IMG/VR virus record: IMGVR_UViG_2565956727_000003
Location: 1-36,978 of that record
Reading direction: 5' to 3' (one strand)
DNA length: 36,978 nucleotides
Origin: a virus
Taxonomy: Duplodnaviria; Heunggongvirae; Uroviricota; Caudoviricetes
Shown: positions 27,701 through 30,700 of the stretch, piece by piece
How the letters are laid out: each line of letters begins with the position of its first letter
Position numbering within the stretch: the stretch's first letter is position 1
Made by a program: the position numbers

Positions 27701-30700
27701 CGTAACTGTTCAACTATTGCTGCGCACGCCGCGCTCTGAAATTTTCGCCCCGCCGCGCTTATCAGGCTCTTACCTGCAAACGCCCCTTTGTTGGGGTGTC
27801 GCCAGTACGTGTTCACGCTGGGCGGGAAAGGCAGGATCAGCTTCATACTTTCAGGCCCCTCTTATGTAACCAGTGGGTTGCACGCAGCCTGGCGTTTTCC
27901 TCACCGGCAAGCAGTGAGCGGATAATCCCGACCGCCTCGCTGTCGTCGTCCTTCACCGCGGTATGAAGCGTGATGCCCCGGGCCACGCCACGCTTTATCG
28001 TGATGACGCCTTTTTTCTCCAGTGCGCGAAGATGCTCCACCGCTGCATTCACTGAACGGTATCCCAGCATGGTTGCCACCTCCTGATTGGTTGGCGGGAA
28101 GCCACGTTCTTTCTGATAAGAAATCAGCATATCCAGCACCTGCTGCTGGCATTGAGTTAACGTCGTCATGCCGCCATCTCCCTGACCAGTTTTTCTGCCT
28201 GCTGGCGAACCTGCGCCAGCGCGTTGTCTTCCGCCGTGTAATACGCGGCACATTTGGCGTTATCACCGTCAGTGAACAGATCCAGAACAAACGGGCCAAA
28301 CAGGGTGTTAATTCCCCAGAAAATGTTGTCCGGCGTGCGCCACTGATCGCCCACTTCCTTCAGTTCATGGGCTGGTTTGTTCCGCAGTTCCACCAGCGCC
28401 TGGCAATATTTATTACTCATTAAGCCCCCACGTAATTCCCTGAGAGATACCACTCTTCACCTGATGCAGCCCGCTTACTGCTTTTCCGTAAACACCGTTC
28501 ACGACGCGCCAGAAAATTGTTTCGTTCTGGCAGGGAGTGGCTTTCACGGAATGCCGCCATCCACACCGTTGCAGCACGACGGTATAAGCCCCTGGACTCC
28601 AGTTCTTCCGCCTGGCGGGTCAGGCACAAAATCACCCGCGGGTCGTTAGTGCCGACATAGAAATTGCGCACAGGTCTGGTTTCACGAACTGGTTGTGGTT
28701 CCGGATCCTGCGCTCTCTCAGTCAGGCGCGGGAAATGTCTGTGTGTATCTCCTTCACAACGGTGAGCCACACGCCCACTCTGACGTAACTTGCTTGCTGA
28801 CTGCAGAACGCGCTGCCGTGAGTAACCTGCAAAAGCATCCGCAATGTCTCCGGAAGTACACCCCGGATGGGCTTCAATGAATTTCTGAACGTCATTCAAA
28901 AGGCTCATGATCACCCCCTGAATCCTGCCGGGATCTGGCTGTAGTCCACATTGTCGTAACTGGCTTTGAAGTACGGGTCTTCGCGTTTTTCTGTGTACGT
29001 GCTGACGGACGGCGATAAGCGCAGGGAAAGTTCATCCCATTTTTCCCGCAGCTTCGACGGGCTGAGCACGTTACGGCACCAGAACGGGTCGCGGCTGACA
29101 CGGTTGTACATCTCGCAGATTTGTTTGTGGGTACGACCGTCCTGTACACACATCAGGCGAATTTCGTTTGCCCAGGCTGTCCAGTTAGGTTCTTTGGGAC
29201 GAACCACCTCGCCGTCACATTCGGCGGCCTGCTCGTACAGGGCGATGATTTTTTTCCAGAGCCACTGTGCGCAGGTCAAATCATCCTGCGTCCCCCACTG
29301 GCGCTTTTTAGGGCTGAATACAACCGCATCAGGATGGCGAGTTAAAAAATCCTGTTCAGCCGTCTGCGTGTCCGGTTGCGAAGAGTCCGGACGAGAAGTT
29401 TTTTTATCTGACGGATCATGTTTTGATTTTACTGACGGATCCCCGCCAGATTCTGACGGGTGAAAACCCGCTTTTTTGCCAGATTTCGACGCATCAAATT
29501 TTGACGGGTCAGATTTTGATGCGTCAGATTTTGACGGGTCAGAATCTGACAGTTGAGAAAATGCCGCTGCCTGAAGCTTCGCAACGTTAAGCTGATAAAC
29601 ATTCGACGCATTGCGGTTACCCTGGCGACGCGCCTTACGCGTTAACCAGCCTTCTGCTTCCAGCCGTGCGATAGCCGTTCTGACGGTACTCATCCCCGCG
29701 CCAATCTGGCGGGCAATGGTTTCAATCGATGGCCAGCACACACCTTCGTCATTACTGAAATCAGCCAGGCGGGCCATAATTGCCACGCTGGATAATTTCA
29801 TGCCTGACGCTGCGCAACCATCCCATACATAGCCGGTTAATTTAGTGCTCATGACCGACCTCTATTTCCCTGAATTTACGACGAAACTGTTCGAGCGGAC
29901 TGAAGCACTCATGCTCATAGCCTTCGCGGAGGTAGATAACCCGTTGTGTTTCCGGTTCCCAACGAATGACTCTGACGGGCACTCCGTAGTGATCTTTGAA
30001 CCAGCGGTTAACTTGTCGCAAAGGACTGTCTCCTTCTGCCGGTTGAAATCCCCCACAGCCCACTCTGCAAAGCTGTGGGTTACAATTTCCCTGTCACCTG
30101 GTACATTCACTGCATAGCAATATTCCACCTTCGCTTTTCCACCCGGTACAGGAAGCGCAATCAGTTGCGAGCGACGGTAGTGTGTTGTTAAACTGTTCAT
30201 GCGTTAGTTTCTCCACAACCAGAAGCAATCGACGCCACGACGCCCGGAGCTGCACACTCGCGGGCGTCATTACTTTCTGAAATGCAAAAGATTTTGTAGA
30301 CCAGTGCTGCATGCTCCTGCAGCTTCGAAATTGAGAGATACAGCTCGTCGTTAATTGCTGTCTTCTCATGCGGTTCCACTACACCGTCTTCGATTGCTGA
30401 ACGAATCTGTTTTGAATAACTGCCGATCTGTTCAATGACTTCCAGCAGACGCTGGTTAATATCGGCGTTGTCCACATCCTCGACGTCAGGAAGAGACACA
30501 AAGACGCCATTTGCAGACTGCGCCACAGCATCAGCAATGAAGTGAGTGCCACCAGCACGCTGTAAAACCATTGCCCATCCCAGCGGGAAAATCTGATCGC
30601 CATCTGCACGAAGGCGGTTGAATAAAGCGTTTTCTGTTACATCGAGCCAGTCAGCCGCTTCAGCGTAACCACCCGGCAACGCCGCGATAGTTTTTCTGAC

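Follow-up and report, generated by a model that had tools for sequence, protein, structure and literature searches.

A truncated dam gene beside a stand-alone LexA-like gene in an SfV-type Escherichia coli prophage: very probably an in-frame deletion between short direct repeats

The IMG/VR virus record IMGVR_UViG_2565956727_000003 was analyzed over positions 1 to 36,978, and this whole stretch of 36,978 nucleotides is referred to here as the window. It represents a temperate prophage of Escherichia coli of the SfV/SfII/mEp460 type. Our analysis concerns two adjoining minus-strand genes, a short open reading frame (ORF) related to Dam-type DNA methyltransferases and, downstream of it, a gene encoding a LexA-like DNA-binding domain. 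Both belong to a tightly overlapping, lambdoid-style early-right operon on the minus strand, in which a replication gene, PerC/YfdN, dam, the LexA-like gene, rusA, a KilA-N gene, a DUF968 gene and Q follow one another. The locus itself is made up as follows.

28420-28914, minus strand: PerC-family, YfdN-like gene upstream of dam (PF06069, phrog_1324)
28166-28420, minus strand: predicted dam pseudogene, 84 amino acids from its ATG, partial match to the Pfam family PF05869 (Dam)
28212-28219, minus strand: deletion junction, one copy of the repeat CTGGCGCA (TGCGCCAG on the plus strand), placed by DNA alignment
28166-28169, minus strand: ATGA stop/start overlap between dam and the LexA-like gene, as read in the window, compatible with translational coupling
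27843-28169, minus strand: stand-alone LexA-type winged-helix gene, 108 amino acids (PF01726, phrog_362)
27481-27846, minus strand: rusA, Holliday-junction resolvase, with a 4-nt overlap with the stop of the LexA-like gene (PF05866)

The original prediction, made from the sequence of the window, described a Dam-type ORF of 84 amino acids without a (D/N)PPY motif, whose stop overlaps the start of a gene encoding a LexA-like winged-helix domain and nothing else. As a description of the locus this is accurate. The coordinates and minus-strand orientation given above hold for both genes, which share the ATGA. The Pfam match of the Dam ORF is confined to positions 3-60 of the 169 in PF05869 (E-value 6e-18), the (D/N)PPY motif is missing, and the neighbor matches the LexA DNA-binding profile from end to end without a Peptidase_S24 domain. 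Full-length Dam homologues are not of this size: Dam of phage SfII has 217 amino acids and covers positions 3-167 of the same profile.

Alignment with full-length phage Dam, which the original prediction had proposed as a check, located the breakpoints. According to protein and DNA alignments against SfII and SfV, the ancestral dam measures 654 bp and encodes 217 amino acids; the window has lost 399 bp in frame, equal to 133 codons (70-202), leaving Dam residues 1-69 joined to residues 203-217. The first 69 residues are identical to SfII/SfV Dam and the last 15 are near-identical. The ORF had been taken to stop early, but it ends with the native Dam C-terminus, 15 residues and the stop codon, and what is missing lies in the interior. 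The deleted codons include FGNPPY, residues 85-90 of SfII/SfV Dam. The orthologous N- and C-termini identify the remnant as a descendant of a PF05869 family member, and it retains neither the catalytic-domain coverage of that profile nor the NPPY motif. With the catalytic NPPY region gone, the methyltransferase is predicted to be destroyed. GATC sites in the window number 145, with 144 expected, a count that is uninformative.

In intact dam, the 399 nt that are absent from the window are flanked by two 8-bp direct repeats, CTGGCGCA, of which the window retains one, and DNA alignment with SfII and SfV revealed no foreign or filler DNA at the junction. The native stop codon of dam and its ATGA overlap with the LexA-like gene were left unchanged. 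Direct repeats at both endpoints of the intact allele, a single copy left behind, a junction free of filler and a native stop are together the signature of a slippage or microhomology deletion. The right-hand repeat of intact dam sits in the hairpin-capable quasi-palindrome CTGGCG-CAGGTT-CGCCAG, which may have favored slippage. In the window, the junction lies inside an 8-pair hairpin-capable sequence (28200-28221, plus strand), which a terminator scan flagged on the antisense strand. When 1601 nt of the window were used as a query, 51 phage records were matched at 96-99% identity, and in 45 phage records the match split in two pieces over about 2000 nt.

In SfII and SfV, a PerC-like gene, dam (654 bp), the LexA-like gene (327 bp) and rusA follow one another with overlaps as in the window. 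Here the intact 217-residue dam precedes the same 108-residue LexA-like gene through the same ATGA, the 327-bp gene being annotated as 'LexA DNA binding domain protein' or orf42. The dam, LexA-like and RusA set is also annotated under the query match in mEp460, Stx2a_1447 and other phages. A wider comparison set consisted of 80 IMG/VR loci (viral contigs) that carry the LexA-like gene. At all 80, rusA stands immediately 3' of it, and rusA also follows in four of five more distant contexts (3/4 for a 64%-identical relative and 1/1 for a 48%-identical one), the fourth context of the 64%-identical relative having an unannotated 126-amino-acid ORF in the rusA position. A dam gene lies directly upstream at 53 of the 80 loci and is an intact ORF in every case; both copies of the repeat are present in 48 of these 53 alleles, and the nearest of them is 1 nt away from the remnant in the window. 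Because the LexA-like gene is the neighbor of intact dam with the same ATGA overlap, it is a native, conserved neighbor of dam and rusA and was not imported.

The frequency of the deletion was determined with a 44-nt junction probe, the arms of which are too short to seed on intact dam. An 80-nt junction query was unsuitable for counting, as it joined the two flanks of intact genes as one match. The 44-mer was present in two of 5426 complete E. coli genomes (LD91-1 and 8GC) and matched no phage record, and the junction occurred at none of the 80 IMG/VR loci. Approximately 1600 complete E. coli genomes carry the flanking dam sequence, two of them with the deletion allele. In LD91-1 and 8GC the Prokaryotic Genome Annotation Pipeline (PGAP) labels the remnant as a pseudogene, 'DNA N-6-adenine-methyltransferase, incomplete', and the gene after it as 'LexA family transcriptional regulator' or 'LexA family protein'. 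A large assembly collection lists the exact 84-residue product in 102 index blocks; 24 contigs were read, and these contain it in at least two immunity-region backgrounds. One assembly, GCA_000488055.1 (KI530624.1), matches the window at 100% identity across 6.3 kb, while other deletion-bearing loci range down to about 97%. Since the same junction is found in two complete genomes and many assemblies, the deletion allele is real and not an artefact; it is rare, and it circulates.

The dam gene is also variable by presence and absence. Approximately 21 of the 80 IMG/VR loci have no dam, and here the TAA of the PerC-like gene overlaps the ATG of the LexA-like gene directly (...GCTTAATGACGACG...). 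The gene is a precise, gene-sized cassette bounded by ATGA and is found in about two thirds of the relatives. Because these loci join PerC straight to the LexA-like gene, dam is dispensable in the SfV/SfII-type phage group. More generally, the gene upstream of the LexA-like gene may be dam, dam together with a C5-methylase, or PerC: dam is likewise missing from the 64%-identical, Citrobacter-type relative, which has the same arrangement, and the 48%-identical relative has Dam and a C5-methylase upstream of the LexA-like protein and RusA. The protein database contains several other decayed or fused Dam/LexA-like forms (P0112, P0022, P0092, P0098 and P0120); in P0112, Dam residues 1-73 are fused in frame to residues 51-108 of the LexA-like protein. 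The junction region of dam and the LexA-like gene thus decays in several independent ways, though some of these forms may be sequencing errors.

We conclude that a single 399-bp in-frame deletion in dam between 8-bp repeats, next to a LexA-like gene that is native and not imported, very probably explains the whole locus; nothing that was found contradicts a deletion. RecA-independent deletion between short direct repeats by replication slippage has classically been described for lacI and for plasmid deletions, and slippage or another RecA-independent microhomology event would account for the dam allele of the window. Judged by its sequence, the 84-residue remnant would be an inactive pseudogene. 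As the deletion is in frame, translation should still end at the native stop, and coupling to the LexA-like gene and rusA should persist. E. coli hosts normally possess a Dam of their own; loss of the phage gene was presumably tolerated because dam is accessory in this phage group and the host enzyme is present. The same junction occurs in prophages with flanks that are only about 97% identical and with different immunity regions. An allele that arose once and was then spread by recombination cannot be told apart from one that arose repeatedly by slippage at these repeats.

Three other explanations of the short dam were weighed. An in-frame mini-Dam (69 + 15 amino acids) could have been kept for a function, be it regulatory or dominant-negative, or its frame could have been selected for coupling. 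The preserved frame and native stop/start overlap speak for this, as does the persistence of the allele in many assemblies and at least two prophage backgrounds, but an in-frame outcome is expected by chance once in three, and phages without dam couple PerC to the LexA-like gene, so that no Dam-derived peptide is needed. Moreover, about 107 of the 169 PF05869 positions are lost, NPPY included, and the allele is rare among the dam-carrying complete genomes (2 of ~1600). We therefore regard a functional mini-Dam as improbable. Of the view put forward in the original prediction, that a replacement destroyed the methyltransferase and brought in the LexA-like gene, the destruction stands with the loss of NPPY, but the replacement and the import do not. 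An insertion or replacement cutting dam after 84 codons and importing a foreign gene is suggested by the local appearance of a short Dam ORF abutting a LexA-like ORF, but is hardly credible given that the same gene follows intact dam across an identical ATGA in SfV and SfII and has intact dam upstream at 53 of 80 loci, that the remnant closes with 15 codons and a stop that are native to dam, and that the gap is bounded by direct repeats without novel DNA. Likewise, although assemblers can in principle stumble over short direct repeats, a mis-assembly of intact dam that left a 399-bp gap is extremely unlikely, as an 8-bp repeat is far too short for assembly collapse, the identical junction recurs in two independent complete genomes, and the 84-residue product comes from different samples and diverged backgrounds throughout the index blocks and contigs mentioned above.

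The deletion left the LexA-like gene itself untouched, and the similarity of its product to LexA, claimed in the original prediction, was borne out by profile search, sequence search and fold comparison. The 108-amino-acid protein matches PF01726 (LexA_DNA_bind) over the whole profile (1-65/65, E-value 3e-19), whereas no Pfam match to Peptidase_S24 was obtained up to its end at residue 108. A phmmer search against Protein Data Bank (PDB) sequences returned 1lea (E-value 7e-16), with a gap-free alignment to E. coli LexA residues 2-69, and the identity to LexA residues 1-86 is 43%. The AlphaFold2 model (mean predicted local distance difference test score, pLDDT, of 80) folds residues 1-68 into a winged helix-turn-helix with helices 6-22, 28-35 and 40-52 and strands 56-59 and 65-68, followed by a C-terminal tail of two extra helices, 74-87 and 93-103. 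The top hits of Foldseek against the PDB were structures of the LexA N-terminal domain (1lea, 3jso), at a root-mean-square deviation of 1.3-1.6 Å over 67-69 aligned columns. LexA contacts DNA through Ser39, Asn41, Ala42, Glu44 and Glu45 (PMC3091678). The phage protein keeps S39, N41, A42 and E45, four of these five residues, and the R64-G65-I66 wing is invariant in its family.

Of the features of canonical LexA, the winged helix-turn-helix is present in the phage protein, and the S24 domain, with its Ser119/Lys156 dyad and dimerization function, is absent. The protein is matched over its full length by phrog_362 ('transcriptional repressor'), and its family, whose clusters reach sizes in the thousands and which occurs in E. 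coli, Citrobacter, Salmonella and Hafnia, has a conserved length of 106-108 amino acids. Relatives with only 38-49% identity still carry the tail motif EAVxxxRxLLAxxxxARxRAxxxL. Because both the motif and the length are conserved in relatives, the shortness of the protein is native and not the result of truncation. A88-G89 of the protein aligns with the LexA cleavage site A84-G85, and this Ala-Gly site is not conserved in the family, relatives having A-N or V-G. A trans-cleavable LexA fragment was considered and rejected, since AN or VG replaces the dipeptide in relatives. Short stand-alone proteins with a LexA DNA-binding domain (69-150 amino acids) are plentiful in public data, for example P0131, P0149 and P0152, and proteins with two tandem LexA-type DNA-binding stretches occur as well; 4582 matches were obtained at an E-value of 1e-3 or below. 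Because many short stand-alone forms are among these matches, peptidase-less LexA DNA-binding domains are common in public data.

Most likely the stand-alone LexA-type protein of SfV-type phages is a non-cleavable LexA-type DNA-binding regulator encoded in the early lytic operon, an assignment that we make with lower confidence than that of the dam deletion. As the S24 domain is missing, the protein would not respond to RecA*. With similar reserve, it would probably dimerize via its C-terminal helices and probably bind CTGT-type half-sites, most plausibly those of host SOS operators. Host operators are mildly favored over phage promoters because the prophage has neither SOS boxes above chance nor a recurrent palindrome. 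The original prediction had suggested an SOS-box-binding decoy or regulator and a search for LexA-box-like sites in the prophage; the DNA-contact residues are indeed largely kept, but in the window there is no perfect CTGT-N8-ACAG box, and the search for a recurrent palindromic motif in its intergenic regions as a candidate operator was negative. One could imagine that the family comprises 'mini-LexA' proteins of enterobacterial temperate phages, RecA-insensitive LexA mimics that re-occupy host SOS operators after induction has destroyed host LexA, an idea that we consider rather doubtful. If it were true, sulA or the mutagenic polymerases might be shut down, or LexA-controlled antirepressors of competing prophages blocked, and it would amount to a phage takeover of the SOS regulon, something not known to have been described for E. 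coli phages.

Several observations weigh against a regulator that recognizes SOS-type sites. The contact residue corresponding to E44 is Val, and residue 44 is variable across the family. Sites with one mismatch to CTGT-N8-ACAG number 15 in the window, where 11.6 ± 3.2 would be expected. Compared with the 20-mer SOS consensus, the best site agrees at 15/20 positions, lacks the CTG/CAG core and is within the shuffle range of the window. Within the literature searched, no paper on SfV orf42 or on the LexA-like family was found. The protein might instead target promoters of the phage itself, its specificity being other than that of the SOS box, as an activator or timer of later genes. A precedent, the only characterized one that we found, is gp6 of the Bacillus phage GIL01: this truncated homologue of LexA activates the phage's late promoter P3 (Fornelos et al. 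2018, PMC6182141). The variable residue 44 and the position of the gene in the early lytic operon upstream of Q fit such a role, but the intergenic regions of the window have no repeated palindromic motif, all but one of the five LexA contact residues are kept, and late control is already provided by the lambdoid Q antiterminator. We regard control of phage promoters as a tentative possibility. Separately, a perfect palindrome, CTGTTT-N9-AAACAG (equal to CTGT-N13-ACAG), lies in an intergenic region at 35715-35735 on the plus strand, just upstream of the integrase gene (35794). Its spacing is unlike that of an SOS box, and it may be an operator or a terminator.

The remaining genes of the operon and the prophage repressor are located as follows.

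28911-29852, minus strand: replication-initiator-like gene (HTH_36 in Pfam; O protein family protein in the SfII annotation)
26628-27437, minus strand: KilA-N gene (Pfam)
25631-26620, minus strand: DUF968/HNH gene (Pfam)
24865-25617, minus strand: Q-type antiterminator
31090-31716, plus strand: CI-type prophage repressor (HTH_3 and Peptidase_S24 in Pfam; 'LexA family protein' in the LD91-1 annotation)

The CI-type repressor at 31090-31716 is the cleavable LexA-superfamily protein of the prophage and is distinct from the product of the LexA-like gene at 27843-28169. Past the tail genes, at the window's left end, an ORF with a LEM-3-like GIY-YIG domain (1-774, plus strand) is cut by the window edge. 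An acyltransferase gene (Acyl_transf_3; 1324-2391, plus strand), likewise past the tail genes, could be a moron for O-antigen modification of the kind found in serotype-converting phages.

In itself, the truncated dam matters little. It is routine prophage gene decay, already recorded as a pseudogene in RefSeq, and the arrangement of dam, the LexA-like gene and rusA has been known in GenBank since the SfV deposit; the deletion has no novel reading. As by-products, the locus illustrates cleanly an in-frame deletion by slippage whose parental allele is on record with both copies of the repeat, and it provides evidence for dam as an ATGA-bounded, gene-sized accessory cassette. The widespread pairing of a stand-alone LexA DNA-binding domain with RusA is conserved; the dam finding touches on its function but does not illuminate it.

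Compared with known systems, the locus is closest to the dam-orf42-orf43 (rusA) module of SfV (U82619) and its equivalent in SfII (KC736978), which have the same order and overlaps, approximately 97-98% nucleotide identity and the 108-residue LexA-type protein. The difference is that their 654-bp dam is intact, while that of the window lacks the internal 399 bp (codons 70-202). The CPS-53 prophage of E. coli K-12 offers a second parallel: its YfdN is a PerC-family homologue of the gene at 28420-28914, and its YfdM, annotated as a 'putative methyltransferase', derives like the window ORF from the same phage Dam, of which it preserves residues 1-90 unchanged. In CPS-53, however, the break lies just after NPPY and a much larger deletion also took the LexA-like gene, rusA and genes beyond, whereas the deletion of the window is small, internal and in frame. 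It resembles the classic slippage deletions in having an 8-bp repeat at both endpoints, one copy of which is kept, and a right copy that is hairpin-capable; nothing about it is unusual. The LexA-like protein shares with the N-terminal domain of E. coli LexA (1lea, 3jso) the winged helix-turn-helix fold at 43% identity, residues S39, N41, A42 and E45 and the R64-G65 wing. It differs in having a two-helix tail (residues 74-103) in place of the S24 peptidase and dimerization domain, V in place of E44, and no family-wide Ala-Gly cleavage site. GIL01 gp6 belongs to a tectivirus of a Gram-positive host; its extension consists of 14 residues that form the wing, whereas the LexA-like family carries an extra helical tail of about 40 residues.

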